64,000 bases of DNA from Escherichia virus TH40: the sequence record MT446411.1; one strand, 5' to 3'. The notes beneath the pieces were generated by a model. It searched no databases and was not told the origin of the DNA. It saw only the letters and a list, made by a program, of their open reading frames with translations. This document shows positions 130-51,123 of this stretch, in pieces; position 1 is the first letter of the stretch, and each line of letters starts with the position of its first letter. The translations under genes were made by a program, and so were the position numbers.

Positions 130-1089
130 TTATTTTGAAAAAGGACGAATTAAATGTTGGTTAGCCTTGAAACGTTTAACATAGTCTTCGCGACCCAGGG
201 TGTTGTACATATTCACTACTTCCTGGTAATGTTCCCAGGCATACTCACGAAACCATCCAGAAGTAATGGAGGTGCAGACTTTTTCCAGAGCAATATGGAA
301 GCTCACGGATGGAGAGATACTAAACTCGTTAGGAACCTGCGAACGCTCCAGAGCGAGCACACATGCTTCTTCATAAACCCCTGCCAGTTTAATAACATCA
401 GGGAGTGCTTCAAATTTTTCACGCGAGGTCATGACTTCCGAATCATCCTTCATATAGAACTTATATGCAGGCTTATCAGCAAGCGCCACGGCCTCGTGGA
501 TGGAGTCATGGTCAAGGGTATAGATTGTATCATTAAAGAAAGTTTTCTTGCCCACGTCTAGTTTAGGGTGGCTATATGACAGTGTTTCTGCCTGACGTTG
601 TAACATAATTTTCTGCAGTTCATCATTAAGAACAACACCCTTATTACGAAGGTAATTAATATGGCTCATGGTCTTCAGGAAGAATGGATTGTTCTTCAGG
701 TAACGATGAGACAATTTAATTGCCAGACAAATATCAGGGGTCGCCCAATAGAAACCTGTAAGACGGTCTTTCTTAATATGATTTTCAGCGTATTTCAAGA
801 GACGATAACTTGAGGTGAAATCTTCATCTTGAAGCTCACCAGTAATTTCTCGTACGTTGGTCAGGGCACGGACAATATAAGCTTCAAAATAGGTTTCTTT
901 GCCATTGTACATACATTTAAAAGCTTGGACATCAGGGTTATCCACAGGAACATGAGCACCGAACATACGTGCTTTAAAGTGGTTCCATGAGCCCTGGTCA
1001 GCGATGAAGTCCCAATCAGAGTTTTCAATTTTCTGACTTTCAATCAGACCAGCGTTATGTAATGCACGAGAACCAATAACTAACATCAT
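130..1089 (-). CDS. hypothetical protein (320 aa), N-terminal GS...DxD motif reminiscent of Pol-beta-type nucleotidyltransferase
   Basis: Long reverse ORF 130..1140; start moved to internal ATG-ATG at 1089 which has GAGGAAAATATT RBS; N-terminus MMLVIGSRALHNAG...DWDFIAD. Confidence 0.5.
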   Translation of the reverse strand: MMLVIGSRALHNAGLIESQKIENSDWDFIADQGSWNHFKARMFGAHVPVDNPDVQAFKCMYNGKETYFEAYIVRALTNVREITGELQDEDFTSSYRLLKYAENHIKKDRLTGFYWATPDICLAIKLSHRYLKNNPFFLKTMSHINYLRNKGVVLNDELQKIMLQRQAETLSYSHPKLDVGKKTFFNDTIYTLDHDSIHEAVALADKPAYKFYMKDDSEVMTSREKFEALPDVIKLAGVYEEACVLALERSQVPNEFSISPSVSFHIALEKVCTSITSGWFREYAWEHYQEVVNMYNTLGREDYVKRFKANQHLIRPFSK

Positions 1090-1108
1090 AATATTTTCCT
1101 CAGATAAC

Positions 1109-1339
1109 TTAAATTTCAGCAGCAGAGATATTAGATTCATCTATCATCTCGGAGGCGGACCCCTTAACGATAGGAACCAATTTGCCATAGAGGTCTTCAT
1201 TATAAGGGTCGTTGATACAGTGCGCATCTTCAAAACGAACACCGTAATCAGACTTCTTATAAACGAGACCGTAAATCTTTGTAAACTTAGCGCGACTAAT
1301 TTTTACGGGCTCATCAGCCATTGGAGCATAATACCACAT
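1109..1339 (-). CDS. hypothetical small protein (76 aa)
   Basis: Reverse ORF with GAGGAAAATATT RBS, early-type promoter upstream at 1368-1397. Confidence 0.45.
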   Translation of the reverse strand: MWYYAPMADEPVKISRAKFTKIYGLVYKKSDYGVRFEDAHCINDPYNEDLYGKLVPIVKGSASEMIDESNISAAEI

Positions 1340-1367
1340 AATATTTTCCTCATTAGTTGACGAGATA

Positions 1368-1397
1368 ATGATACTACGTTTCTTTAGGCTTGTACAC
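1368..1397 (-). promoter_or_regulatory. early sigma70-type promoter (-35 GTGTAC, -10 TATCAT)
   Basis: GTGTAC-N18-TATCAT on reverse strand upstream of 1109..1339. Confidence 0.4.
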
Positions 1398-1442
1398 TAA
1401 ATTTCTGCGCATAAGTCCTCCTATCACATCCTTGTGATTAAA

Positions 1443-1670
1443 TTATTTTCCTAACGAAATACGAGTAGGTTTTTTACCGAAATATTCTTCATAGGAACCA
1501 TCTAAACGGCCCGCTTTAGACCGACAGTACGAATCATACTTTTTGTAATAAGTCAACTCTGTATTGTAACGTGGATGTCTATCAGCCATAATAATACTTA
1601 ACGGCCAACCTTTGGCGTAATCACGAAGACCATTTATTTTACGAATATATCTTTTCTTTAATTTTAACAT
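1443..1670 (-). CDS. hypothetical basic small protein (75 aa)
   Basis: Reverse ORF in co-oriented array; start overlaps upstream gene stop. Confidence 0.4.
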   Translation of the reverse strand: MLKLKKRYIRKINGLRDYAKGWPLSIIMADRHPRYNTELTYYKKYDSYCRSKAGRLDGSYEEYFGKKPTRISLGK

Positions 1671-1888
1671 GAGCTCGGATACCAGATTTTACCATCCGGG
1701 TGAGCAACAAAGGTGCGTCCAGCTTCTTCACCATAACAAGAGCTATTCAACCAGTCTTCAAGACGAACTTCACCATCATAATCGTCGAGCTCAATACCGA
1801 AATCTTGGGCAGAAGCCATATCTTTAACTTTCTTATACAGCGCAGCCAGTTCAAGAGCTGCTTTTTCTAATTCATTAATATCAGACAT
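1664..1888 (-). CDS. small acidic protein, diverged member of tandem paralogue family (C-terminus ...WYPSSC)
   Basis: Reverse ORF; N-terminal helical segment and C-terminal Ser-rich Cys end resemble the three neighbouring paralogues. Confidence 0.5.
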   Translation of the reverse strand: MSDINELEKAALELAALYKKVKDMASAQDFGIELDDYDGEVRLEDWLNSSCYGEEAGRTFVAHPDGKIWYPSSC

Positions 1889-1897
1889 TTTTATTCC

Positions 1898-2095
1898 TTA
1901 GCATTCGTAAGAGGAGGACACCCAAGAGGTACCACTAATAGTAATACAACCGTTATAAAGCGTGATATGTCGTTCTAGGTCACGAACACCGTCGATATAG
2001 ATATCAGCTTCTTCTCGTTCTTCTTTACAAATCTGGATAACGTTTTCAATAGCTGCGGCTGCAGTACGGATTGCACAATCTAATTCACGAGACAT
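1898..2095 (-). CDS. small protein, tandem paralogue family member (C-terminus SWVSSSYEC)
   Basis: Reverse ORF; 3' end DNA near-identical to 2105 and 2396 genes (plus strand ...AGAGGAGGACACCCA...). Confidence 0.55.
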   Translation of the reverse strand: MSRELDCAIRTAAAAIENVIQICKEEREEADIYIDGVRDLERHITLYNGCITISGTSWVSSSYEC

Positions 2096-2104
2096 AATAA
2101 TTCC

Positions 2105-2386
2105 TTAACATTCAGAAGAGGAGGACACCCAACCACCTTTTTCCAGGTCAGTTGTATAGTCATGTTGGTTAACGATAGCGTATTGGGCTTCACCGTAGTT
2201 TTCCCAATGAGCAAGGTCAGCTTTCAGGGCGCCAGGAGAATAATAGTCACCGCCCATACCGCGAGCAGGGTATATATTAAAATGAGTCTCATATTTGTTT
2301 GCAATTTCCTCGGCACGACGAATAGCTTTATGGATATCATTTACTGCGTTGGCCAGTTCTTTATTTTTACTGTAATCGTTCATCAT
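2105..2386 (-). CDS. small protein, tandem paralogue family member (C-terminus GWVSSSSEC)
   Basis: Reverse ORF; conserved C-terminal motif and conserved 3' DNA. Confidence 0.55.
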   Translation of the reverse strand: MMNDYSKNKELANAVNDIHKAIRRAEEIANKYETHFNIYPARGMGGDYYSPGALKADLAHWENYGEAQYAIVNQHDYTTDLEKGGWVSSSSEC

Positions 2387-2395
2387 ACCATTTCC

Positions 2396-2686
2396 TTAAC
2401 ACATCTCAGAAGAGGAGACCCAAGCACCAACGGTAACAACACCATTTTCAACCCGACCGCCATTGGCTTCAATATGATGGGTAAACCATTCAGAGCATTC
2501 ATAACCAACTGGATGATATGTACGGCCGGTGCCGTAATCACCAGTGCTGAATTCGATACCATATTCATCTGCGATTTCTTCACAGTGTTTTTCAATTTCA
2601 GAGGTCTTATTTAGAAGAGAATAGATAGCTTTTTCTGCAGATTTCTCATCATAATACTTGGGGATAGCAATTTCAATTTTATTCAT
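2396..2686 (-). CDS. small protein, tandem paralogue family member (C-terminus AWVSSSEMC)
   Basis: Reverse ORF; conserved C-terminal motif and conserved 3' DNA. Confidence 0.55.
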   Translation of the reverse strand: MNKIEIAIPKYYDEKSAEKAIYSLLNKTSEIEKHCEEIADEYGIEFSTGDYGTGRTYHPVGYECSEWFTHHIEANGGRVENGVVTVGAWVSSSEMC

Positions 2687-3036
2687 GATTTACATTCCTT
2701 AATAAAGGTTTCAAGGTCATTACGTTTTGTTTTGTCTAGGAACTTATTATACTCAGCCATTGCTGAAGCATATCTCTTATATATGGGAGCATTCAAGGCG
2801 TTTGTATAACAGATATCATACACAACCGGGATAAAATAGGCCACAACAGCCGGAGCAATTATCATAAAGAAGCCCATCTCAATAGGCATGACTCCCTCGA
2901 TTGCAGCCATAACCGTGGTCATTACCAGACCAACCAGACCACCGAGCATGGCAGTGACAATCCCTAATAATAAATTGGCACCAATATCATATTCAGCCAA
3001 TTGATAAACATGTGATGCAAGACTAGGCCGTTCCAT
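2683..3036 (-). CDS. small membrane protein (two predicted TM helices)
   Basis: Reverse ORF; start set at internal ATG 3036 with AAGGAGG RBS; hydrophobic stretches LLLGIVTAMLGGLVGLVMTTVMAAI and FFMIIAPAVVAYFIPVV. Confidence 0.5.
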   Translation of the reverse strand: MERPSLASHVYQLAEYDIGANLLLGIVTAMLGGLVGLVMTTVMAAIEGVMPIEMGFFMIIAPAVVAYFIPVVYDICYTNALNAPIYKRYASAMAEYNKFLDKTKRNDLETFIKECKS

Positions 3037-3400
3037 TACGAACCTCCTTAATAAATTCTTCGGCACATTTAATTTTGTGCTCTTCTTGTAGGGAAACACA
3101 TTTTTGTTCCCACTCTTTAACTCGTCCACGATATCCTTTATTCATATGATTTTGATGCCACACATTTATCAATATCATACACAAGACCGTAATAAAAGGA
3201 GCGGCGATTATTAGTGCCCAGGCAACTCCAACACTAATGATATCCATATCCCCACAAAGCACCATCATTATAACCCCAACAATGCATATAGACAGAGCCC
3301 CAAATGGAGGCATAAGGTCTTTATCAATTTTGTCTGCGTATACAAATTTTTCTGGTTTACTTGGTAGATATAGCGTTCGCATTTTGAGCCCCTTTAGCAT
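3023..3400 (-). CDS. small membrane protein (two predicted TM helices)
   Basis: Reverse ORF; likely start at 3400 or 3382 (AAGGGG RBS); hydrophobic segments ICIVGVIMMVLCG and AWALIIAAPFITVLCMILI. Confidence 0.45.
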   Translation of the reverse strand: MLKGLKMRTLYLPSKPEKFVYADKIDKDLMPPFGALSICIVGVIMMVLCGDMDIISVGVAWALIIAAPFITVLCMILINVWHQNHMNKGYRGRVKEWEQKCVSLQEEHKIKCAEEFIKEVRNGTA

Positions 3401-3911
3401 ATTCACGACATTCAGTAATAAAACGATTAAGCTTCCGTTGTTGTTTACGACTCTCTGATGTGTATTCAGCCGCCAAATCAAGAAGTTCAGCTTTATCATA
3501 ATTTTTAATATCAGCATAAGCTGGACGACGGTCAACCATTCCAAAGTGGTCACCATTTTCTAACATCAAATAACATACCAAATGGTCATCATCATCCGCA
3601 TCAATAAGTCGTTTATAATCGCTTGGGTCGTTTAATGCATACACTGAATAACGTAGTCCAGCGAATTCCACTCGTTGGATACCCAGATTTACGTCAATAA
3701 TTTCCAAGGCATCTGCAAAAGAAAGGTCTTCAGCTAAAGCAAAAATAAAAGGCAATTTTGTAGTATCACCACGGCTAGTTGTTCTTCTTAAGAAATCATT
3801 GGAATAACCTAGGTCACCACGGATTCTATAAAGAACTGTATTAGTTTCAGTGGCAAGACCACTACCGCCAAACCATTCTACATTTGATATAAGATTATCG
3901 TATGAAGTCAT
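3357..3911 (-). CDS. hypothetical protein (184 aa)
   Basis: Reverse ORF; start at 3911 with GGAGAGGAG RBS; hairpin 3921-3949 upstream. Confidence 0.5.
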   Translation of the reverse strand: MTSYDNLISNVEWFGGSGLATETNTVLYRIRGDLGYSNDFLRRTTSRGDTTKLPFIFALAEDLSFADALEIIDVNLGIQRVEFAGLRYSVYALNDPSDYKRLIDADDDDHLVCYLMLENGDHFGMVDRRPAYADIKNYDKAELLDLAAEYTSESRKQQRKLNRFITECREYAKGAQNANAISTK

Positions 3912-3920
3912 AATATTCTC

Positions 3921-3949
3921 CTCTCCCAATTAAGGGGGCAAAGCCCCCT
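3921..3949. terminator. GC hairpin GGGGGC-AAA-GCCCCC with T-run (plus-strand orientation)
   Basis: Stem-loop followed by TTTTAT on plus strand. Confidence 0.4.
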
Positions 3950-3955
3950 TTTATC

Positions 3956-4549
3956 TTACTTAAGTGAATTGATGTATTCTTCAATGTCAGCGGATGTGGT
4001 ATCCACACCGACCTGCGGGCCTTTGAAGGTTTCAACACGCATCAGAGTGTCTTCAATATCAATCTTAGTCAATGCAGCGATTTCAACAACATCATCTGCA
4101 GTCGCAATACCCAGGGCAGATACCTTACGAGTTTCGCGGATGTATTCCAGTTTAACAGCTAGTTCCTGACGAGAATCATCCAGCTCTTTAACTTTCAATT
4201 TAATTTCATTACGCATTTCAACATAATCATCTGCCTTCTTACGAAGTTGTTTAGCAGTGCGACGATACAGAAGACCCAGTTTAGCATGGACTTGCACATC
4301 TGCTCCATCAGCAATCAGTTTACGGATTTCACGCTCTTTTGAAGCAGCGAGCTGGTCTTTTTCATTCGCTAACTCGCGGATGCGTTTTTCTTCATTAACA
4401 GACTTAACGTGGGCAGTCTGGAGCTCAGTAATCTTGTCAATCAGGGTAGAAGCCGCTTTGGTATACTGGTCTTCAATAGACAGGTTTTGTGCCATTGCAG
4501 TACCCAGTTTGGAGCGGATGAATTCAACAAGTTTCTTTAAAGTATTCAT
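3956..4549 (-). CDS. hypothetical coiled-coil protein (197 aa)
   Basis: Reverse ORF rich in heptad-like charged/hydrophobic pattern; early-type promoter at 4592-4621. Confidence 0.55.
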
Positions 4550-4591
4550 GGTATTTCCTTCAGTTGGTTAATGTTTTATTATCCAGGGAAC

Positions 4592-4621
4592 ATACTATCA
4601 TGTTCCCGTTAAAGCGTACAC
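4592..4621 (-). promoter_or_regulatory. early promoter (-35 GTGTAC, -10 TAGTAT) with -10 embedded in palindrome GGGAACAT...ATGTTCCC
   Basis: GTGTAC-N18-TAGTAT on reverse strand; 22-bp inverted repeat 4586-4607. Confidence 0.45.
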
Positions 4622-4625
4622 TGAT

Positions 4626-4931
4626 TTAGATTTTATTTTCCTGCACACCATAATACAGTTCATCAGATACAATATTCAGGATGTGGCGAACATATTCATC
4701 ATGGTATTGACAGTCAAAATCAAATGCAACAGTAGTTTCCGCTTCACGAGTGAATTTAACTTGCACATTCAGGTGATTAGTAACGTGAGTTAATTTATCA
4801 GTAAAGAACTCTTTTGCTACCGCCTGCTGGACTTGCACTTTGAACTTGGTGTTGCGAATCATATTTTCAGCAGATGCGAAATTACCAGTTTTATCAAAGT
4901 CAACAAGCGCCAGGTTGATGATGAATTTCAT
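4626..4931 (-). CDS. hypothetical protein (101 aa)
   Basis: Reverse ORF with GGAGAA RBS and early-type promoter at 4971-5000. Confidence 0.5.
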   Translation of the reverse strand: MKFIINLALVDFDKTGNFASAENMIRNTKFKVQVQQAVAKEFFTDKLTHVTNHLNVQVKFTREAETTVAFDFDCQYHDEYVRHILNIVSDELYYGVQENKI

Positions 4932-4970
4932 TTTATTCTCCAGTTTTATTTGGTAACTCAGTATGGAATC

Positions 4971-5000
4971 ATTATGCCTTAAAGCAGGGGGCTTGTATAC
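4971..5000 (-). promoter_or_regulatory. early promoter (-35 GTATAC, -10 CATAAT) with conserved leader CCATACTGAGTTACC
   Basis: Reverse-strand GTATAC-N18-CATAAT; leader motif shared with 5486, 6003 and 43339 promoters. Confidence 0.5.
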
Positions 5001-5011
5001 CCCCTTTTGAA

Positions 5012-5443
5012 TTAAATTTCAAATTCTTTGCGGAAGTTGGAAGCATAAGATTGAACTGATGCTTTGTTGAATCCAAACTCACGCACAATCATATCAATAA
5101 CAGCTCTGCGAGCAGCACCATTAGACATATTAACAGTTTTGAACATATCATAGCATAAATCTTTGTTGCTCATACCGGAGCGTTTAGGTGCCTTACGCTC
5201 AGCTTTTGGTTCAGCTTTAGGAGTAGGTTTAACCTGTCCATCATTCAGACCTTTAAAAATTTTACCCGCCAGAGTTGCCAGTTTAGCAGCTTCGCCACGA
5301 GTGATACCAAATACTGCCGGGTTAAATGAAATACCTTCAGCTGTTAAACGTTTGAAGAACATACGCGCTGCGGATTGCGCTTCAGCTTCAGAAGAGTTGT
5401 TTAATGCCAGTTTAACGTACTTAATCAGTTTTGAAGTTTTCAT
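5012..5443 (-). CDS. hypothetical protein, paralogue A (C-terminal AARRAxID...VQSYASNFRK domain)
   Basis: Reverse ORF, start at internal ATG 5443; C-terminal 35 aa conserved with 5527..5952 product; promoter 5486-5514. Confidence 0.5.
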   Translation of the reverse strand: MKTSKLIKYVKLALNNSSEAEAQSAARMFFKRLTAEGISFNPAVFGITRGEAAKLATLAGKIFKGLNDGQVKPTPKAEPKAERKAPKRSGMSNKDLCYDMFKTVNMSNGAARRAVIDMIVREFGFNKASVQSYASNFRKEFEI

Positions 5444-41405: not shown

Positions 41406-42965
41406 ATGAAAAAGAATGCATTAGTTCAAAAATGGTCCGCTCTGCTGGAAAACGAAGCTCTTCCGGAAATCGTTGGTGCTTCTAAACAAGCTATCATCGC
41501 TAAAATCTTTGAAAACCAGGAACAAGATATTCTGACCGCTCCTGAATACCGTGACGAAAAAATCTCCGAAGCATTTGGTTCTTTCCTGACCGAAGCTGAA
41601 ATCGGTGGTGACCATGGTTATGATGCTACCAATATCGCTGCTGGCCAGACCTCTGGTGCAGTAACTCAGATTGGGCCGGCAGTTATGGGTATGGTTCGTC
41701 GTGCTATCCCGCATCTGATTGCGTTTGATATTTGTGGCGTACAGCCTCTGAACAACCCGACTGGCCAGGTATTTGCCCTGCGTGCAGTTTACGGTAAAGA
41801 CCCTGTAGCTGCTGGTGCTAAAGAAGCTTTCCACCCGATGTATGCTCCAAATGCTATGTTCTCTGGTCAGGGCGCTGCTGAGGCTTTCGAAGCTCTGGCT
41901 GCAAGCAAAGTTCTTACCGTTGGTAAAATTTATTCTCACTTCTTCGAAGCAACCGGTGCCGCGCACTTCCAGGCTGTTGAAGCTGTAACCGTTGATGCTG
42001 CTGCTACTGATGCCGCTAAACTTGACGCCGAAGTTACCAAACTGCTCGAAGCTGGTAAGCTGGCCGAAATCGCTGAAGGTATGGCTACCTCTATCGCCGA
42101 ATTGCAGGAAGGCTTCAACGGTTCTACTGATAACCCGTGGAACGAAATGGGCTTCCGTATCGATAAACAAGTTATCGAAGCTAAATCCCGTCAGCTGAAA
42201 GCAAGTTACTCCATCGAACTGGCACAGGACCTGCGCGCTGTTCATGGTATGGATGCTGATGCCGAATTGAGTGGTATTCTGGCTACCGAAATTATGCTGG
42301 AAATCAACCGCGAAGTTATCGATTGGATTAACTACTCCGCACAGGTTGGTAAATCTGGTATGACCAACACCGTTGGCGCTAAAGCTGGTGTGTTTGACTT
42401 CCAGGACCCGATTGATATCCGTGGCGCTCGTTGGGCTGGTGAAAGCTTCAAAGCTTTACTGTTCCAGATTGATAAAGAAGCCGCTGAAATCGCTCGTCAG
42501 ACTGGCCGTGGTGCAGGTAACTTCATCATCGCTTCCCGTAACGTAGTTAACGTACTGGCTGCAGTTGATACCTCCGTATCTTATGCTGCTCAGGGTCTGG
42601 GTAAAGGTTTCAACGTTGACACCACTAAAGCTGTGTTCGCTGGTGTTCTGGGTGGCAAATACCGTGTATACATCGACCAGTATGCTCGTGCAGACTATTT
42701 CACCATCGGTTACAAAGGCGCTAACGAAATGGATGCTGGTATCTACTACGCACCATATGTTGCACTGACCCCGCTGCGTGGCTCTGACCCGAAAAACTTC
42801 CAGCCGGTTATGGGCTTCAAAACCCGTTACGGTATCGGTATTAACCCGTTCGCTGACCCGGTAGCTCAGGCTCCAACCAAGCGCATTCAGAACGGCATGC
42901 CGGACATCGTTAACAGCCTCGGCTTGAACGGTTACTTCCGCCGCGTATATGTTAAAGGAATTTAA
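41406..42965 (+). CDS. 23: gp23 major capsid protein
   Basis: 519 aa; strong codon bias; synteny. Confidence 0.95.
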   Translation: MKKNALVQKWSALLENEALPEIVGASKQAIIAKIFENQEQDILTAPEYRDEKISEAFGSFLTEAEIGGDHGYDATNIAAGQTSGAVTQIGPAVMGMVRRAIPHLIAFDICGVQPLNNPTGQVFALRAVYGKDPVAAGAKEAFHPMYAPNAMFSGQGAAEAFEALAASKVLTVGKIYSHFFEATGAAHFQAVEAVTVDAAATDAAKLDAEVTKLLEAGKLAEIAEGMATSIAELQEGFNGSTDNPWNEMGFRIDKQVIEAKSRQLKASYSIELAQDLRAVHGMDADAELSGILATEIMLEINREVIDWINYSAQVGKSGMTNTVGAKAGVFDFQDPIDIRGARWAGESFKALLFQIDKEAAEIARQTGRGAGNFIIASRNVVNVLAAVDTSVSYAAQGLGKGFNVDTTKAVFAGVLGGKYRVYIDQYARADYFTIGYKGANEMDAGIYYAPYVALTPLRGSDPKNFQPVMGFKTRYGIGINPFADPVAQAPTKRIQNGMPDIVNSLGLNGYFRRVYVKGI

Positions 42966-42984
42966 TCCTAGATTAAGTTAAATA

Positions 42985-43012
42985 AAAAGGGACCCTTGAG
43001 GTCCCTTTCTTG
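42985..43012. terminator. bidirectional hairpin GGGACC-CTTGA-GGTCCC flanked by A-run/T-run between gene 23 and reverse ORF
   Basis: Stem-loop with AAAAA upstream and TTTC downstream. Confidence 0.55.
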
Positions 43013-43015
43013 TTT

Positions 43016-43297
43016 TCATACCATACCATTTAAATGAACTTCTACCCGGCGCTTGATGAGGTCTCTGAAGTTAACATTGTTTTCTTGAAGTTTCAACCAG
43101 TTACCATTTTTATCTTTAGTGTGAGTAGAATAATTACCATTCCACCAGAAATCAGTGTCATATGCTAAGTTTTCATATTTTTTAACTAGTTTGTTCAGAG
43201 CATTACCATTAACACCATTTGGGTATTTGTTGACCAATGCAATAACTTCAATTTCCAATTTTTTAAAGGTGTTCAGAAGGAAAGTTGCTTTGTTCAT
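43016..43297 (-). CDS. hypothetical protein (93 aa) on opposite strand between genes 23 and 24
   Basis: Reverse ORF with GGAG RBS and early-type promoter 43339-43368 carrying the conserved leader motif. Confidence 0.45.
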   Translation of the reverse strand: MNKATFLLNTFKKLEIEVIALVNKYPNGVNGNALNKLVKKYENLAYDTDFWWNGNYSTHTKDKNGNWLKLQENNVNFRDLIKRRVEVHLNGMV

Positions 43298-43374: not shown

Positions 43375-43382
43375 TATAAATA
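43375..43382 (+). promoter_or_regulatory. late promoter TATAAATA (gene 24)
   Basis: Exact consensus 27 nt upstream of ATG. Confidence 0.6.
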
Positions 43383-43408
43383 AAGTATATCACAAAAGGA
43401 AAGCGCAA

Positions 43409-44689
43409 ATGGCAAAGATTAACAAATTACTGCGCGAGTCAACTATTACTACCAGCAACTCCTTGGGCCGCCCGAATCTTGTTGCTTTGACCCGCGCTAC
43501 GACTAAATTGATTTACCGCGATATCATCGCTGAACAACGTACTAACCAACCTGTTGCTGCACTGTATGGTGTTAAATATCTTACTCCTGATAATGAATTC
43601 AGTTTCCAGACGGGCGCTACTTATGGAGGCGAAGTCGGTTCTAAAGACCGCACAACTATTCCAGAATTAACTACAGCCACTCAGCCTGTGGCTAAAGGCG
43701 AATATGTAAAATACCAAAATATCGTTTACAAAGCTCTGGTTGATAATCCATTTGCATCGACCACAGAAACAGTGTTATCTGATGTTCTGCAAGAAGGTCT
43801 TATTGCATCGACTATTCGCCTTGTTCCTGATGCCGCACACACTGAAAAATTCGAAGCCGGTGATGTTGAAATTAGCAATGCTGTATTCCAGGTTAATAAA
43901 TGGAATGCTCCGGTTAAAACACGTAAATTGAAAACTGCATTAACTGTTGAACTTGCTCAGGATATGGAAGCAAATGGTTTTAACGCTCCTGCTTTCTTGG
44001 AAGACCTGCTTGCCACTATTATGGCAGATGAAATTAACAAAGATGTTCTTCAGTCTCTTATTACCGTTTCCAAGCGTTATAAAGTAACTGGCGTTTCTGA
44101 CAATGGCACCATCGATTTAACATATGATGCAGCTCCAGAAGGCGCACGTAAACTGTATGAACTGGTTTGCGAAATGAACTCCGAAATTCAGAAAACTACA
44201 TCTTATTCCGGTACCTTTGTTGTTGCCTCTAGCCGTGTTGCTGCTATGTTGGCCGGTTCTGGTTGGTTGAAACACAGACCAGAAGACGAACAGTGGCTCC
44301 CCGAAACAGCGTACGGTTATTTGATTAATGGCCTCCCTGTATTCTGTGATGTTAACAGTCCATTGGATTATGTAACTGTTGGTGTTAAAGAAAATTACGG
44401 CGGAAACGAAGTCGTAGGCTCAATTTTCTATGCTCCTTATACCGAAGGCCTGGACTTGGATGATGAAGAGCACGTTGGTGCGTTTAAGGTCATTGTGGAC
44501 CCAGACAGCTTGCAGCCATCTATCTCTCTGATGGTTCGTTACGCACTTTCAGCTAACCCGTACACCGTTGCTAAAGACGATAAAGAAGCTCGTATTATCG
44601 ATGCAACCAATATGGATTTAATGGCCGGTCAGAGCAATATGTCTTATCTGCTCGGTGTTAAACTTCCGCCAATCATTTATGAGGCGTAA
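43409..44689 (+). CDS. 24: gp24 head vertex protein
   Basis: 426 aa; MAKINKLLRESTITTSNSLGRPNLVALTRATTKLIY... matches T4 gp24; late promoter 43375-43382. Confidence 0.9.
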   Translation: MAKINKLLRESTITTSNSLGRPNLVALTRATTKLIYRDIIAEQRTNQPVAALYGVKYLTPDNEFSFQTGATYGGEVGSKDRTTIPELTTATQPVAKGEYVKYQNIVYKALVDNPFASTTETVLSDVLQEGLIASTIRLVPDAAHTEKFEAGDVEISNAVFQVNKWNAPVKTRKLKTALTVELAQDMEANGFNAPAFLEDLLATIMADEINKDVLQSLITVSKRYKVTGVSDNGTIDLTYDAAPEGARKLYELVCEMNSEIQKTTSYSGTFVVASSRVAAMLAGSGWLKHRPEDEQWLPETAYGYLINGLPVFCDVNSPLDYVTVGVKENYGGNEVVGSIFYAPYTEGLDLDDEEHVGAFKVIVDPDSLQPSISLMVRYALSANPYTVAKDDKEARIIDATNMDLMAGQSNMSYLLGVKLPPIIYEA

Positions 44690-45973
44690 ATGCAAAAGAT
44701 TAATGCACTAATTCACGAATCAACATTAACGGCGGCCAACCAGGTCGCCCGTCCTAATTTGCTTTCTTATACTCAGGCTACGAATAAACGAATTTTTAAA
44801 GCACTCGTGGCCGAACAGAAAACTACCCAGCCTGTTGCAGCCCTGTATGGTGTTCGTGTTCTGAACCCAGATGATAAAATGACTTATCTCGGTGGAGCAA
44901 CATTTGCAGGTCAGATTGGTATGTTCGAGCGTAAGAATATTCCAGAATTTACAAACAAAGACGAAGCTTATGCAGTCGGCGATATGTTCCAGTTTGAAAG
45001 TGTTGTGTTCAAAGTTTTGGAAGCATCCCCATTCGCCGGTACACTCGAAACTGATTTAGGTGAAGTTATTTCTGAAGCCATTGCTGCTGGGCATATAAGA
45101 ATGATGTCAGATGCTGCTTTCACTGATAAATTTGAAAAGGGGCATCCTGAAATTGCTGAAGCTGGTTTTCGTATCGATAAATGGCAGACTGAAGTTAAAT
45201 CCAGAAAGTTGAAAACTTCTTTAACTGTCGAGCTTGCCCAGGACCTGGAAGCAAACGGTTTTGATGCAACAGACTTCATCGATAATATTCTCGGCATTCA
45301 AATGGCAGAGGAAATTAATAAGGATGTATTGCAATCCCTTATTACTGTTAGTTCCCGCTTCAAGGTGCAAGGTGTTTCGGAAAAAGGTGTATTGAATCTT
45401 ACTGACCCGAAATATGATAATGCCCAGGACCGCGCACGAACCCTGTATTATTATATGTGTGAAATGAATTCTGCAGTTCAACGTCAGACTTCGTTTGCTG
45501 GTACATATGCAGTTGCTTCTTCCCGTTGTGCAGCTATTTTAGCCGCTTCTGGCTGGGTTGAGAAAAAGGAAGACCAGGATGAATTGGCCTATGGTGTTCT
45601 GAAGAACGGTTTGCCTCTTTACGCTGATATGAATAGTCCATGCGATTATGTTATTGTTGGTGTAAATGCGGATATGGGTGAAGGTCAGACGGTCGCATCT
45701 TTATATTATGCGCCTTATACGGAAGGACTTAGCGAAGTTGATGATGAGGGTGATACCTCGGTTGGGGAATTCAAGGTTATTGTTGACCCCGAAAGCTTAC
45801 AACCTACGGTTGCACTGTTAGCTCGTTATGCTTTGACTGCGAACCCTTACACCGTTGCTAAAGATGATAAAGAAGCTCGCCTTATTGATGGAGCTGATAT
45901 GGATAAGATGGCTAACCAAAGTCAATTGAGTTCTTATCTTGGTGTTAAACTTCCACCGCTGGAAAAAGAATAA
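44690..45973 (+). CDS. gp24 paralogue (second vertex-protein-like gene)
   Basis: 427 aa, clearly paralogous to preceding gene along full length but diverged; ATG directly follows stop of first copy. Confidence 0.85.
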   Translation: MQKINALIHESTLTAANQVARPNLLSYTQATNKRIFKALVAEQKTTQPVAALYGVRVLNPDDKMTYLGGATFAGQIGMFERKNIPEFTNKDEAYAVGDMFQFESVVFKVLEASPFAGTLETDLGEVISEAIAAGHIRMMSDAAFTDKFEKGHPEIAEAGFRIDKWQTEVKSRKLKTSLTVELAQDLEANGFDATDFIDNILGIQMAEEINKDVLQSLITVSSRFKVQGVSEKGVLNLTDPKYDNAQDRARTLYYYMCEMNSAVQRQTSFAGTYAVASSRCAAILAASGWVEKKEDQDELAYGVLKNGLPLYADMNSPCDYVIVGVNADMGEGQTVASLYYAPYTEGLSEVDDEGDTSVGEFKVIVDPESLQPTVALLARYALTANPYTVAKDDKEARLIDGADMDKMANQSQLSSYLGVKLPPLEKE

Positions 45974-45993
45974 GGGCCTTGCGGCCCTTTTTT
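45974..45993. terminator. hairpin GGGCC-TTGC-GGCCC + TTTTTT between gene 24 paralogue and rnlB
   Basis: Stem-loop plus T-run. Confidence 0.6.
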
Positions 45994-46999
45994 ATTCACT
46001 AATTAATGCAATCCATACATGTCTTAATGTTTCTTTTACATTTGCGATAAGTTGCTTTTTAACTTCAACAGGATTTTCTGTCTGGGTTAATTCAAGTCCT
46101 TCACGACCCGCTTCTTCCAGGATATCCTGGACAGTCAAACCCATTACCTTTCCAAAATCCTTAGGTGTTACTTCCCCAATCTTACTGATAACATTATTGA
46201 TACGGTTGACAGTCACATAATCAGTAAACTTCCATAAAACATCCAGGTCTTCCTGTGACAACACAACTGCAGCTTTAATAGGCTTATCAGACTTTTTCTT
46301 TTCACTGAATTTAGAGTTCTTGCATTTAATCGCTACGCGCTCACCGTTAGGTAACCATGCAGGAACATCAGGTTTTAATACAAATCCTTCAGCAGTGAAT
46401 ACTTTACCTTCCACCTTTGCATCAAAATCAGTGGTATTTGCTGTAGTCAATCCTGCGTTATCCACTGTAAAATTGTAATCAGGGACCACAGAATCCAGGT
46501 CATTAGGGAGCTTAATCAAGTCTTCAAAGCTACCTGTGGCCAGGCGTGGGGCAACTTTAAACTTATGAATAATACAAAAGGCTTCCATAAGTGTGTCAGT
46601 CAGGACGGATTCAGAGCCATCTTCCTTAGTAACGCGGATATCAAACACATAGAAATCTTTATCGCCGTAATCCACATTCTTCTGAATACCTGTACCAGCA
46701 AACTCGCCATAAATCTGGTAAGCCTGGTAATTAATATCCTGCAAAAGTTTCTGCACAGATTTAATAGAATCTGTGTAGTTCTTTAATACAATTTCATAAC
46801 CATAGAAATCTTCTGCAGGTAGAATAGGTCCAGTGCGTTTCGCGCATGTCACATTGTCTTGTTCAATGATTAATGAAAAGTTGGTACCATGAATTTTCTC
46901 ACGAGCTACCCATTCACCGCTGGTGAAGCCTTGCAGGCGAATCTTTTCAATGAACTTGTTATTATAGTGATTTTCAAGGCTGTTGTATTTCTTAAACAT
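45992..46999 (-). CDS. rnlB: RNA ligase 2 (Rnl2)
   Basis: [19 protein letters not shown]...[16 protein letters not shown] (KxHG nucleotidyl-transferase motif), 335 aa, matches T4 Rnl2. Confidence 0.95.
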
Positions 47000-47760: not shown

Positions 47761-48894
47761 TTAATAAACGTAATCGTATATAATACCAGTTTCTAAAGCG
47801 GTGCGATGAATAACTCGACCATTACGAGATTCTTGTACATCAACCTCTGGATAGTCGGTAATCATTTTTTGAAGTGTGTATCGGTGCAAATAATACGGGC
47901 TATCCGGGTCATCAGTTTTCCAGTCTTGGCCGGCAAGAGTCATTTTCTGAATTTCATCCATAACCCACCAACCACACCAGATATAAGCTGAATTACGTAC
48001 TGGCAATGGGTGAATATATGGTAATTCGCCATCTGGAACTGGTGCGACTTTAGCCGTGACTGTTACATTACCAGTTTTGGTAACGGTTACAGGGTTATAA
48101 TCTGTAGCAGATACAACAACAGAAACTTCAATTAACTGGGAACCTTCGGCGCTTGTATCGATTGCTAAAGTATCCGTGGTACCAGCGACTGGTGAACCAT
48201 CTTTCTTCCAAGAATAGGCAAAAGTAGCACCGGCAGGCGCACCGGCTACAGTAGCTTTAAAAGAAGCCGGAGTTCCTGAAGGAACATTAATAGAGGTCGG
48301 TGCTAAAGTAACAGAAACACCCGACATAGTTTTCTTAACAAAAGTTACCGCAGCTCCTTTAGATGCGGTGCCATTATTATAATCGGGTGCAGAAACAGTA
48401 ACTTCACAGTTCAATGTATAATTTGCTTCTGCTGATTCGGTGACGGTAATAGTTTTACCAGTTTGACCTGCGATTACGCTAGTGTTACGTTTCCAAACGT
48501 AAGCGATTGTTGCACCAGAAGGAGCGCCTGTCACGTTAGCAGTAACAACTTGAGATTGCCCCACTTCTTTAGTAACAGAGGCAGGGTCTAAAGTCAATGT
48601 AATAGCAGGCATTGTTTTATTCTGGATAGTTAAAGTTGTCTCAGCCTCAGCAGTTTCCGGTTCACCGTCTGCCGGAGTGGTAGTTGCAACAACTTTAATA
48701 GTCTTACTGCCTGCTGGGCCAACAGCGACATAAGCCATTGCTGCAGTCACAGAAGATTGAGGAACGCCATCAACGGTCCATACAAATGATTCAACACCTT
48801 CAGCTGCAGCACCAGAGCCGGTTGCAGTGAAATTGGTTGTTGCTCCAATAACGGCCGTAGCCGCCAAAGGAGCAATAGCTACGGTATAAGCCAT
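47761..48894 (-). CDS. hoc: Hoc highly immunogenic outer capsid protein (Ig-like domains)
   Basis: 377 aa; ...TKTGNVTVTAKVAPVPDGELPYIHPLP...YIWCGWWVMDEIQKMT... matches T4 Hoc C-terminus. Confidence 0.9.
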   Translation of the reverse strand: MAYTVAIAPLAATAVIGATTNFTATGSGAAAEGVESFVWTVDGVPQSSVTAAMAYVAVGPAGSKTIKVVATTTPADGEPETAEAETTLTIQNKTMPAITLTLDPASVTKEVGQSQVVTANVTGAPSGATIAYVWKRNTSVIAGQTGKTITVTESAEANYTLNCEVTVSAPDYNNGTASKGAAVTFVKKTMSGVSVTLAPTSINVPSGTPASFKATVAGAPAGATFAYSWKKDGSPVAGTTDTLAIDTSAEGSQLIEVSVVVSATDYNPVTVTKTGNVTVTAKVAPVPDGELPYIHPLPVRNSAYIWCGWWVMDEIQKMTLAGQDWKTDDPDSPYYLHRYTLQKMITDYPEVDVQESRNGRVIHRTALETGIIYDYVY

Positions 48895-49569: not shown

Positions 49570-49587
49570 GATGAACCTCGGTTAGTG

Positions 49588-49595
49588 TATAAATA
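49588..49595 (+). promoter_or_regulatory. late promoter TATAAATA (uvsW)
   Basis: Exact consensus 29 nt upstream of uvsW ATG. Confidence 0.55.
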
Positions 49596-49623
49596 TAGAT
49601 ATATTTATTACCTTGGAATCATC

Positions 49624-51123
49624 ATGGATATTAAAATCAACTTTCTAAATTTTAGTCACGTGCATGTTGAATGTGAAGATGGAATCTTCTACGAACTCCG
49701 TGATTACTTCAGCTTCGAAGCTGAAAACTATCGCTTCAATCCAAAATTCAAGCAGGGAGTTTGGGACGGACGAATCCGCCTCCTGGATTACAATCGTAAA
49801 TTACCATACGGTTTGGTTAATCAAATTAAAAAGTTCGCTGACCAGTTTGGCTATTCATTCTGGATTGACCCACAAATCACCGAGAAAGAAGAAATCTCTC
49901 GCGAAGAATTCGACAAATGGGTCGAGTCAAAAGAAATCTATTCAGGCAATACTAAGATAACGCCCCATTGGTATCAATCTGACGCCGTATATGATGGTCT
50001 GGTCAACAGAAGAAAGATTCTGAACTTACCTACGTCTGCAGGTAAAAGTCTCATCCAGGCGCTTCTGGCGCGATATTATCTCGAGAACTATGAAGGCAAG
50101 GTACTTATCCTTGTTCCTACAACCGCGCTTGTTGACCAGATGATTAATGACTTTGTTGATTATCGTCTGTTCCCTCGTGAAGCTTGTCTGGGTATTCGTT
50201 CTGGTACCAAACGCGATTCTGATGCGATGATTTATGTATCGACTTATCAGACGGCTGTAAAACAACCTAAAGAATGGTTTGAACAGTTTGGTCAGTTTAT
50301 GAATGACGAATGTCATATGGCTACAGGTAAATCAATTTCGACGGTTATCGAAGGCCTTACGAATTGTATGTTTAAATTTGGTTTGTCCGGTTCACTCCGT
50401 GACGGCAAAGCCAACCTTATGCAATATATGGGTCTGTTTGGTGATATCTTTAAACCAGTATCAACATCTAAATTGATGGAAGATGGTCAGGTCACTGACC
50501 TTAAAATAAATAGTATTTTCCTTCGTTACCCTGATGAATTTACCGTTAAAATGAAAGGTAAAACTTATCAGGATGAAATTAAGGTAATTACAAAAGCTAC
50601 ACGCCGAAATAAATGGGTAACAAATCTTGCTCTCAAGCTTGCTAAAAAAGATGAAAACGTCTTTTTGATGTTTAAGAATATCGAGCACGGTAAATCGATG
50701 TTTGAAATGCTTAAGGAAGCTGGTCATGAGAAAGTGTATTATGTTTCCGGGGAAGTTGATACCGAAACTCGTAATGCATTAAAGGTCATGGCAGAGAATG
50801 GAAAGGGAATTATCGTTGTAGCTTCATATGGCGTATTCTCGACGGGTATTTCCGTTAAAAACCTCCATCATATTATTTTCGCCCACCCGGTCAAGTCAAA
50901 GGTAATTGTACTCCAGACAATTGGTCGTGTGCTTCGAAAACATGAATCCAAATCACAAGCAAACGTTTTTGATATCGTGGATGATATGGGGGTTAAACCT
51001 AAATCGGTAAATGCTAAAAAGAAATATGTTCATTTGAACTTTGCCCTAAAACATGGTCTTGAACGTATACAACGATATGCTGATGAACGTTTTAACTATG
51101 TAATTAAACAGGTGGAAATTTGA
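49624..51123 (+). CDS. uvsW: UvsW DNA/RNA helicase (SF2)
   Basis: MDIKINFLNFSHVHVECEDG...; Walker A PTSAGKS, DECH box; late promoter 49588-49595. Confidence 0.9.
   Translation: MDIKINFLNFSHVHVECEDGIFYELRDYFSFEAENYRFNPKFKQGVWDGRIRLLDYNRKLPYGLVNQIKKFADQFGYSFWIDPQITEKEEISREEFDKWVESKEIYSGNTKITPHWYQSDAVYDGLVNRRKILNLPTSAGKSLIQALLARYYLENYEGKVLILVPTTALVDQMINDFVDYRLFPREACLGIRSGTKRDSDAMIYVSTYQTAVKQPKEWFEQFGQFMNDECHMATGKSISTVIEGLTNCMFKFGLSGSLRDGKANLMQYMGLFGDIFKPVSTSKLMEDGQVTDLKINSIFLRYPDEFTVKMKGKTYQDEIKVITKATRRNKWVTNLALKLAKKDENVFLMFKNIEHGKSMFEMLKEAGHEKVYYVSGEVDTETRNALKVMAENGKGIIVVASYGVFSTGISVKNLHHIIFAHPVKSKVIVLQTIGRVLRKHESKSQANVFDIVDDMGVKPKSVNAKKKYVHLNFALKHGLERIQRYADERFNYVIKQVEI

Follow-up and report, generated by a model that had tools for sequence, protein, structure and literature searches.

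Phage T4 carries a single gene 24 for its head vertex protein, located between gene 23 and rnlB, whereas Escherichia virus TH40 (MT446411.1) carries two gp24-type genes side by side in its head-gene cluster. The locus raises the questions of whether the second gene is a new acquisition, how old the pair is, and how a T4-type head might use two vertex proteins. The window analyzed here is a 64,000-nucleotide stretch of this record, in which the head genes are arranged in the order 20-67-68-21-22-23-(orf)-24A-24B. Gene 24A (43409..44689, plus strand) and gene 24B (44690..45973, plus strand) are intact gp24-type open reading frames of 426 and 427 amino acids, and the TAA stop codon of 24A (44687-44689) directly abuts the ATG of 24B. 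These coordinates confirmed the first-pass annotation of this DNA, which had described two full-length, back-to-back gp24-like reading frames and a single gene 24 in T4. Disabling mutations, which it had considered for the second copy, were absent from 24B, the reading frame being intact.

The two encoded proteins, henceforth referred to as A and B, are 55% identical with 75% positives over their full length by BLASTP (E = 1e-173), a similarity far beyond chance. Against T4 gp24, tblastn gave 69.6% identity for A and 55.2% for B. The earlier description of the first copy as the closer one to T4 gp24, and of the second as diverged over its whole length, was therefore correct. Gene 24A, named 24(1) in VR7, 24a in JS98 and “capsid vertex protein I” elsewhere, encodes a canonical T4-type vertex protein precursor, and gene 24B, correspondingly 24(2), 24b and “capsid vertex protein II”, encodes a protein from a distinct, deeply branching clade of gp24 paralogues. 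The C-terminal block YAL(S/T)ANPYTVAKDDKEAR, to which attention had been drawn as retained by the second copy, is indeed present in both proteins but does not link them in any special way. It is equally conserved in T4 gp24 and in other single-copy gp24s and thus reflects a family-wide constraint rather than a particular bond between A and B.

The initial reading of the duplication as unusual or new was not supported by comparison with existing records. The window comes from an isolate of Gaprivervirus-like type that shares 99% identity with vB_YenM_P8, UPEC07 and TH22; megablast identities were 99.2% to the Yersinia phage vB_YenM_P8, 92-94% to VR7, VR20, VR25 and VR26, and about 81% to JS98. 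The annotations under these matches read capsid vertex protein I/II, 24(1)/24(2) or 24a/24b, and the Melville genome paper states that the capsid vertex protein is duplicated in tandem in both S16 and Melville (PMC6486254). A tblastn census with a threshold of E<=1e-100 located 1,206 gp24 places in 1,089 records, corresponding to about 117 T4-like phage records with two gp24 genes. Members of Gaprivervirus, Dhakavirus, Gelderlandvirus, Kanagawavirus and Roskildevirus were confirmed to carry the pair, as were metagenomic contigs L015-L018 and L020, and the order gp23, A, B was observed in every confirmed pair-bearing genome and contig. Judged by these matches, the locus is the already annotated JS98/VR7-type 24a/24b module and is already known. 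With GenBank annotation of the pair dating back to JS98 and VR7, and with its mention in genome papers, nothing is added here as a discovery.

Both proteins were assigned to the gp24 family by several searches. Scores against PF07068 were 329.4 bits for A and 327.5 bits for B (cut-off 24.4), and PHROG 138 was matched with E = 1e-130 and 2e-123, respectively. Against the PDB, B matched T4 gp24 (1YUE/7VRT/7VS5) with E = 4.3e-148 over residues 1-424, and gp23 chains with E of about 2e-12 over residues 156-393 only. An AlphaFold2 model of B was of moderate confidence (pLDDT 64, pTM 0.65) and uncertain in the N-arm and in residues 165-186 and 330-377; Foldseek nonetheless ranked T4 gp24 chains 5vf3_a, 7vrt and 1yue first (E = 1e-36 to 5e-28, TM 0.43-0.48), followed by gp23. 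For the predicted fold of B, the 55% collinear identity to 1YUE is stronger evidence than the AlphaFold2 and Foldseek results. Taken together, these searches demonstrate that A and B are complete gp24-type proteins with an HK97-like fold and an insertion domain.

Features of a processed and maintained vertex protein were found in both copies. A predicted prohead-protease (gp21) site, LLRE|S in A and LIHE|S in B, would be cut after residue 10, and the cleavage motif [L/I]-x-E| near residue 10 is present in all 26 B-clade proteins and in 108 of 110 canonical proteins. The dN/dS ratio was 0.035-0.088 for A and 0.020-0.095 for B, with a value of 0.038 for T4 versus Mosigvirus. As estimated from these alignments, purifying selection on A and B is as strong as on single-copy gp24. 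The suggestion that the second gene might provide a bypass of gp24 dependence found no support, as both genes are strongly constrained and gp24 bypass in T4 arises from mutations in gp23 (PMC3012670, PMC9546572).

Co-transcription and translational coupling of the two genes were read from consensus signals. A bidirectional hairpin terminator after gene 23 (42984..43010), seen as terminator-like hairpins of 9-12 pairs on both strands, is predicted to set the 24A-24B unit apart from the gene 23 transcript. An exact match to the T4-type late promoter TATAAATA lies at 43375..43382 on the plus strand, 26 nt 5' of the 24A start codon; this motif is enriched in the window, with 23 matches versus 4.9 expected. 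A late promoter was found 25-28 nt 5' of the A-side gene in 7/7 pair-bearing loci examined. No TATAAATA was detected inside A or before B in the seven loci, including a scan of the last 200 nt of A with one mismatch allowed, and a separate promoter for B was rejected on this basis. Sigma-70-like matches in the 24A-24B region were rarer than the chance expectation. The match at 43375..43382 is thus, on promoter consensus, the sole late promoter for the pair.

A purine-rich ribosome-binding site for 24A, AAGGAAAG, was read from the sequence at 43396..43403 (plus strand), as was a GAGG Shine-Dalgarno for 24B at 44681..44684 (plus strand), located within the last codons of 24A and 5 nt before the ATG of 24B. 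The GAGG inside 24A, combined with the abutting stop and start codons, indicates translational coupling, and we infer that translation of B is coupled to that of A. Junctions of 0, +1, -1 or -4 nt separate A and B in all other pair-bearing loci. At the 3' end, a terminator scan of both strands identified a GC-rich hairpin, AAGGGCCTTGCGGCCCTT, with 7 pairs (5 of them G-C) followed by a T-run (45972..45989). This hairpin overlaps the stop codon of B and is predicted to be a bidirectional terminator shared by the 24A-24B unit and the downstream neighbor rnlB, a convergent gene at 45992-46999 on the minus strand. The two genes would thus share one late bicistronic mRNA, bounded by the TATAAATA promoter (43375) and this terminator (45972). 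Given a single late transcript and coupled translation, A and B would be made together, late, in every infection, both as capsid subunits. The A-then-B order, an abutting or overlapping junction and one upstream late promoter recur in 7-8 loci from different lineages. Codon usage was alike in the two genes (GC3 of 0.36 for A and 0.33 for B; RSCU correlation with gp23 of 0.67 and 0.55), and these similar values were uninformative as a guide to relative expression.

From family membership, constraint and expression signals, A and B most likely form an ancient and already known pair in which both members are functional capsid vertex proteins expressed together. An alternative in which B is not a vertex pentamer protein at all but a portal-adjacent capsomer, a prohead-only factor removed at maturation, or a host-defence decoy was considered highly improbable. 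B is collinear over its full length with gp24 and not with gp23 (E = 4e-148 vs 1e-12), it has kept the protease site, the shared late operon and the family-wide C-terminal block, and its level of constraint matches that of a structural lattice protein.

The age of the pair was addressed with neighbor-joining trees built on corrected distances. A grouped with the gp24 of T4, Mosigvirus and Karamvirus to the exclusion of B with 100% bootstrap support. In a 103-taxon tree the B clade was recovered in 100/100 bootstraps, the A-side superclade without B in 99/100, and a grouping of A-core with B in 0/100. The initial view, that the second copy arose from the first in this lineage and then diverged, was contradicted by the phylogeny. 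A recent lineage-specific tandem duplication, with the downstream copy diverging fast, would account for A and B being adjacent, on the same strand, near-equal in length and collinear throughout, and the long stem branch of B can mislead distance trees. Fast evolution of B, however, gives changes unique to B and not states shared by B and the outgroups, so that site patterns count against a recent origin: group-consensus derived states common to A and the T4 group, and missing from B and the outgroups, numbered 10-11, compared to 1-4 for A and B. In every genome A is nearer to T4 gp24 (70%) than to B (55%), and B-type genes adjoin A-side genes of widely differing clades (Roskildevirus and FBB1-like, a JD18-like backbone, and a PM2-like clade).

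DNA comparison of the two genes gave a concordant picture. Synonymous sites between A and B are saturated (pS 0.63-0.70), identity per 30-codon window is 49-73%, the longest exact common word is 17 nt, and no gene-conversion tracts were found between A and B by the 30-codon windows or the shared-word scan. A recent in-lineage duplication is, on the trees and site patterns, effectively refuted. A and B are instead, by the same phylogenetic evidence, an old and conserved paralogue pair and not a recent copy of gene 24. Gene conversion was also considered as the source of the shared C-terminal block and was rejected, given the 17-nt longest common word and the equal conservation of the block in T4.

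An old pair could nevertheless have been assembled by recombination, with B captured from another, now unsampled T4-like lineage, inserted beside the resident gene, and spread by homologous recombination through the conserved flanks, namely the 3' end of gene 24A and rnlB. Consistent with capture, B lies outside the whole A-side/T4 superclade and its branching point varies in bootstraps (19/100 with the Klebsiella/Tegunavirus group, 5/100 for A-side with B). Exchange of one member of the pair is suggested by contigs L016 and L018, in which the A-side genes are at a distance of 0.33 from other A-side genes and the B genes at only 0.22 from other B genes. In addition, L016, which has a JD18-like gp23 (94%), contains the pair, and the JD18-like phage RCIP0032 does not. 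Capture is considered unlikely, since no genome with a B-type gene as its sole vertex gene was found, every inspected record having two places, and a candidate donor is thus missing. The position, order and tight junction are also identical across all lineages, with the B-type gene directly 3' of the A-type gene in every locus examined, and distances among A-side genes co-vary with those among B-side genes (Mantel r = 0.71, p = 0.0002), which is the pattern expected if one old duplication was followed by vertical co-inheritance.

By these measures the pair is mostly co-inherited, and loss is the simplest explanation for its absence from T4-type phages. Two single-copy cases were evaluated separately. 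The gp24 of Klebsiella JD18-like phages is about 64% identical to A and to B alike, and was tested as an A/B chimera left by deletion within a pair. This was rejected because its middle section is only 65-75% identical to either copy, even when compared to A and B of the pair-bearing JD18-like contig L016; the pattern fits retained ancestral states. P0031, which forms a long branch near the B clade, was rejected as an intermediate or a B-only genome. It carries a single-copy gp24, and a second vertex gene is absent from its 3-kb contig.

The changes that distinguish B were then related to known subunit contacts. Eleven sites are fixed differently in the B clade, and 6/11 of them fall within residues 26-68 (Fisher p = 0.003), at positions 26, 32 and 34 of the N-arm and 56, 57 and 68 at the start of I-domain linker 1. 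In T4 numbering, L34/R34, Y57/V57 and T68/G68 tell the two proteins apart. Relative to T4 gp24, B also has an insertion of 3 aa near residue 240, a deletion of 4 aa near residue 295 and an insertion of 3 aa in the 348-359 loop. In T4 gp24, the segment 26-29 pairs with the I-domain linker of a neighboring subunit, and I-linker 1 forms intracapsomer contacts (PMC9546572). Since the model of B is too uncertain for contact mapping, the interface argument is built on the published T4 contacts. The location of B-fixed residues at the T4 intra-pentamer contact suggests an interface in B that is matched to itself and assembly of B into pentamers of its own, a suggestion drawn from the 11 sites and the contacts described in T4 and not from a model of the TH40 capsid. 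Such homopentamers would occupy some of the 11 non-portal vertices.

The vertices of the prolate head fall into three classes: a single apical, five distal-ring and five portal-proximal vertices. An arrangement in which A and B form separate homopentamers at distinct, geometrically non-equivalent classes is offered tentatively, as a possible but not a probable outcome. The same prolate head type is built with one gp24 in T4, Mosigvirus, Karamvirus and JD18-like phages. All 55 gp24* subunits of T4 adopt essentially one conformation whatever their vertex class (PMC9546572), and a structural requirement for specialized vertices is therefore not obvious. Virion proteomics, cryo-EM or genetics separating A and B of any pair-bearing phage were not found in the literature searched, which did not include the key JS98, VR7 and S16 papers. 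The specialized vertices proposed in the first-pass annotation would rank as a reasonable hypothesis.

Interchangeability offers a different explanation, in which A and B are equivalent or conditionally preferred according to temperature, host or chaperone, and mixing or substituting them provides robustness. The proteins are alike in size (45.4 and 45.7 kDa), charge (pI about 4.6) and domain layout, one gp24 suffices for T4-type heads, and several pair-bearing phages, including the VR7 group and vB_YenM_P8, have been described as low-temperature or psychrophilic (PMC11269248). This explanation was nonetheless judged doubtful. Redundant genes would not be expected to keep a dN/dS of 0.02-0.09 in both copies throughout five genera without a loss in any of them, and at identities of at least 80% A occurs in about 91 records and B in about 93. 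A single promoter and translational coupling speak against separate conditional regulation, and many pair-bearing phages, among them S16 and the Enterobacter and Erwinia phages, have no cold-adapted description.

Roughly one in ten sequenced T4-like phages retains two vertex proteins under strong constraint, where T4 manages with one. The present analysis sharpens the question that this poses: the pair appears old and mostly co-inherited, loss most simply accounts for its absence in T4-type phages, and B has changed at the intra-pentamer contact. Separate homopentamers at distinct vertex classes, if they form, would give a natural example of penton proteins specific to a position in the capsid of a tailed phage, and would also imply that T4 and its closest relatives were secondarily simplified to a single vertex protein. 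Occupation of different vertex classes by A and B would provide a useful model for how prolate capsids distinguish their vertices, and would bear on the engineering of capsids and on display in therapeutic phages of the JS98, S16 and VR7 types.

Comparison with known systems places the TH40 locus as follows. T4 gp24 (PDB 1YUE, 5VF3, 7VS5) shares the family, fold, length, protease site and genomic position seen in the window, and A, at 69.6% identity, is its direct counterpart. Where T4, Mosigvirus, Karamvirus and JD18-like phages possess a single gene, the window has a second, deeply diverged paralogue (55%) coupled downstream. The older gp23/gp24 split sets a precedent, in which an HK97-fold capsid gene was duplicated and then specialized for a capsomer type, with both genes adjacent among the late head genes (PMC3012670, PMC10580926), but gp23 and gp24 share only about 21% identity and are unlike in size and processing, compared to 55% identity and near-equal size for A and B. 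The closest counterparts are the JS98/VR7-type loci, in which gene 23 upstream, convergent rnlB downstream, the A-then-B order and the junction are as in the window. A is 97% identical to VR7 24(1) and 89% to JS98 24a, B is 98% identical to VR7 24(2) and 95% to JS98 24b, and the clade bootstraps are 100% for each. The A and B of the window are 85% and 84% identical, respectively, to those of the Gelderlandvirus phage SEA1. The pairs of JS98, VR7, VR20 and CGG4-1 (“vertex protein I/II”), and those of S16 and Melville, represent the same locus as the window, with nothing material different.

Two complete gp24-type genes, henceforth referred to as copy A (24A; 43409..44689, 426 aa) and copy B (24B; 44690..45973, 427 aa), were found on the plus strand, with the ATG of B following the TAA stop of A at once. 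Both products belong to PHROG 138 and matched PF07068 with 329 and 327 bits, respectively (cut-off 24.4). The proteins aligned over their entire length with 55% identity and 75% positives (BLASTP, E = 1e-173). These results bear out the first-pass annotation, which had described two back-to-back ORFs of these lengths, the second diverged throughout. Upstream of A is the T4 head cluster, comprising portal gene 20 and genes 67, 68, 21, 22 and 23 (gene 23 at 41406-42965), while downstream of B the minus strand carries the convergent rnlB, 24.2/24.3-like ORFs, hoc and inh.

Several features of this neighbourhood were recorded separately. A conserved 93-aa ORF (43016-43297, minus strand; PHROG 6003) lies between gene 23 and 24A and resembles JS98 orf173c and RB69ORF188c, whereas T4 carries the segD homing-endonuclease gene at this site. 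The hoc (head outer capsid) gene (47761-48894, minus strand) encodes 377 aa compared to 282 aa in its closest relative, Yersinia phage vB_YenM_P8; two BLASTP alignments offset by one repeat indicate one additional Ig-like repeat of ~95 aa, so Hoc domain number differs among isolates that are ~99% identical at the adjoining 24A-24B. The uvsW helicase ORF (49585-51123, plus strand) is listed with a GTG start and an odd N-terminal extension, MYKYRYIYYLGII; translation probably begins slightly further on, at the ATG of MDIKINF, which lies a few codons in and 3' of a TATAAATA octamer at 49588. A homing endonuclease is annotated between uvsW and uvsW.1 in the vB_YenM_P8 record.

The pair appears to be served by a single late promoter. 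An exact T4 late-promoter motif, TATAAATA, is located at 43375-43382 on the plus strand, 26 nt 5' of A, and no such motif was detected within A or before B, even with one mismatch allowed in the last 200 nt of A. B has a Shine-Dalgarno sequence, GAGG, 5 nt 5' of its ATG, within the last codons of A. Gene 23 is ended by a bidirectional terminator (42984-43010), and a GC-rich hairpin with a T-run (45972-45989) overlaps the B stop, placed to end both the 24A-24B and the convergent rnlB transcripts. All seven pair-bearing loci examined share this layout, in which a promoter lies 25-28 nt 5' of the A-side gene (the upstream partner of a B gene), B has none of its own and the two genes abut; it persists despite ~30% protein divergence among them. 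From these consensus signals, A and B would be transcribed as a bicistronic late mRNA with translation of B coupled to that of A, so that both proteins would be made together in every infection. Across the window the TATAAATA octamer occurs 23 times against 4.9 expected, and those in the head and tail gene block mostly lie close 5' of late genes, on the coding strand.

The two-vertex-gene arrangement is real, with intact ORFs, and has been annotated and published before. The 2.8-kb region was 99.2% identical to that of vB_YenM_P8, 98-99% to those of E. coli phages TH22, TH55, UPEC07 and ECML-359, 92-94% to Gaprivervirus VR7, VR20, VR25 and VR26, and ~81% to Dhakavirus JS98, Bp7, VR5 and IME281; a single match covered at least 80% of the two-gene query in 69 records. 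Depositors have named the genes 24(1) and 24(2) in VR7, 24a and 24b in JS98 and IME08, capsid vertex protein I/II in VR5, VR20, VR25 and VR26, and head vertex protein I/II in CGG4-1. A tblastn search (E<=1e-100) located 1,206 gp24 places in 1,089 records, which implies that ~117 phage records (~11% of T4-like records) carry two gp24 genes. Tandem pairs were seen in five ICTV genera: Gaprivervirus, Dhakavirus, Gelderlandvirus (SEA1, Proteus phage ABTNLPp2), Kanagawavirus (IME523, Kosakonia phage 305) and Roskildevirus (Erwinia phage Cronus). With this spread and the prior annotation, the gene pair was already known as a genomic feature. One vertex gene was found in T4, as previously noted, and in Mosigvirus PhAPEC2, Karamvirus Entb_43, the JD18-like Klebsiella phage RCIP0032 and representatives of Acinetobacter-phage, Aeromonas-phage, Krischvirus and Slopekvirus lineages. 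In Roskildevirus and FBB1-like phages, two more same-strand genes directly follow gene B, before rnlB (3827-5342 in Cronus; 2676-4506 in the FBB1-like metagenomic contig L015), and transcription of the vertex genes may extend further there, in a longer unit. The Cronus genes are annotated 'tail fiber protein' and 'putative structural protein', and the first of those in L015 has a faint collagen-like Pfam match (PF01391).

The first-pass annotation called the locus a tandem duplication of gene 24, which holds only in a remote sense. Copy A was 69-70% identical to T4 gp24, confirming their proximity, while B was 55-58% identical to both T4 gp24 and A in every genome compared; orthologues shared 83-97% (A) and 79-98% (B) identity. 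In a 19-taxon tree (neighbour-joining on Kimura-corrected distances, as were all trees, rather than maximum likelihood), the A and B clades each received 100% bootstrap support, as did a group of A with T4, Mosigvirus and Karamvirus gp24 that excluded B. A database search with B extended the B-type clade down to 66-69% identity and placed within it Erwinia phage FBB1, a phage that has an A-side vertex protein as well. In a tree of 103 thinned taxa, B-type proteins were monophyletic in 100/100 bootstraps and all A-side partners joined T4-type gp24, without B, in 99/100. A recent duplication of gene 24 predicts that close A orthologues group with B, which occurred in 0/100, and this reading is effectively refuted. 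A group-consensus site check, robust to rate differences, agreed with the trees: at 10-11 sites A and the T4 group have a derived state in common and B has the outgroup state, compared to 1-4 sites uniting A and B. Had B merely evolved fast following a recent duplication, changes confined to B would be expected instead.

In the 103-taxon tree, B had no firm branching point with respect to the JD18-like, Tegunavirus and Acinetobacter-phage lineages. Horizontal capture of B from an unsampled lineage is an unlikely origin, given that no genome was seen in which B is the only vertex gene. Five metagenomic contigs with distant B-types (L015, L016, L017, L018 and L020) all retain the order gp23, A-side gene, B gene, with A-side/B junctions of 0, +1, -1 or -4 nt. 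Pairwise distances among A-side genes track those among their B partners (Mantel r = 0.71, p = 0.0002; 13 pairs, six of them paired by equal contig size alone). Most simply, these sequences suggest that the pair arose once, long ago, was mainly co-inherited vertically and was subsequently lost in T4-type lineages. Some exchange of vertex genes also appears to have occurred. On the 80-kb metagenomic contig L016 (logan SRR22802695_265; 1067-5278), gp23 is 94% identical to that of RCIP0032, yet the A+B pair is present and its A-side gene shares just 69% identity with RCIP0032 gp24; phages that are fairly closely related thus seem to have exchanged or lost the vertex-gene module. A and B are an ancient, conserved and probably co-expressed pair of vertex-protein paralogues, an age that 'tandem duplication' understates.

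Both copies appear functional by every sequence criterion. Orthologue dN/dS (Nei-Gojobori) was 0.035-0.088 among A genes and 0.020-0.095 among B genes, the range of single-copy gp24 (0.038, T4 vs Mosigvirus). Synonymous sites are saturated between A and B, and no conversion tract was found between them (longest common DNA word, 17 nt). The best solved-structure match of B was T4 gp24 (1YUE/7VRT/7VS5; residues 1-424, E = 4e-148) compared to a core-only match to gp23 (~1e-12), and an AlphaFold2 model of moderate confidence (pLDDT 64) best matched T4 gp24 chains. A non-vertex role for B, which has no positive support, is very unlikely. Maturation of T4 gp24 removes its first 10 residues (PMC9546572), and a predicted prohead-protease site, [L/I]-x-E|S, lies ~10 residues from the N-terminus of A (LLRE|S) and B (LIHE|S), the motif being kept in 26/26 B-clade proteins. 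The shared C-terminal block noted earlier is present in both copies; it is conserved in all gp24s and so is not diagnostic of an A/B link.

Eleven positions are fixed differently between the 26 B-clade proteins and 110 canonical gp24s: A26S, T32N, L34R, K56R, Y57V, T68G, T204I, Y267F, K328N, E335Q and L415Y in T4 numbering. Six fall in residues 26-68, although the first 68 residues form 16% of the protein (Fisher p = 0.003). Sliding windows gave 44-64% identity between A and B over the N-terminal ~60 residues, compared to ~71-100% among canonical gp24s (A, T4 and a Klebsiella-phage protein). In the T4 capsid, residues 11-20 of mature gp24 (gp24*) extend onto the adjoining gp23 hexamer. Residues 26-29 pair in parallel beta fashion with an I-domain linker of the next gp24 subunit within one pentamer, and intracapsomer contacts stabilise I-linker 1 (~residues 60-81) (PMC9546572). 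Set against these contacts, which are those described for T4 and not a model of this phage, the B-specific changes would lie on both sides of an intra-pentamer contact. With a self-matched interface, B could form its own homopentamers at some of the 11 non-portal vertices; the analysis offers a hint of such an arrangement.

The non-portal vertices of a prolate head fall into three non-equivalent classes (1 apical, 5 + 5). That A and B are instead interchangeable or conditionally used subunits is improbable and hard to square with the strong constraint acting on each gene, with one shared promoter and with the lack of loss within pair-bearing genera (~91 records with A and ~93 with B at identities of at least 80%). 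Experimental localisation of either protein was absent from the accessible literature, which excluded the primary JS98, VR7 and S16 papers; the predicted mature proteins (45.4 and 45.7 kDa, with nearly equal pI) would be inseparable on ordinary gels. Against B homopentamers, all 55 gp24* subunits of T4 are alike in every vertex class (PMC9546572), and T4 builds the same head type with one gp24. The proposal that a second copy bypasses gp24 dependence likewise lacks support: T4 achieves bypass through A-domain point mutations of gp23 (PMC9546572; PMC3012670) and not through a second gp24.
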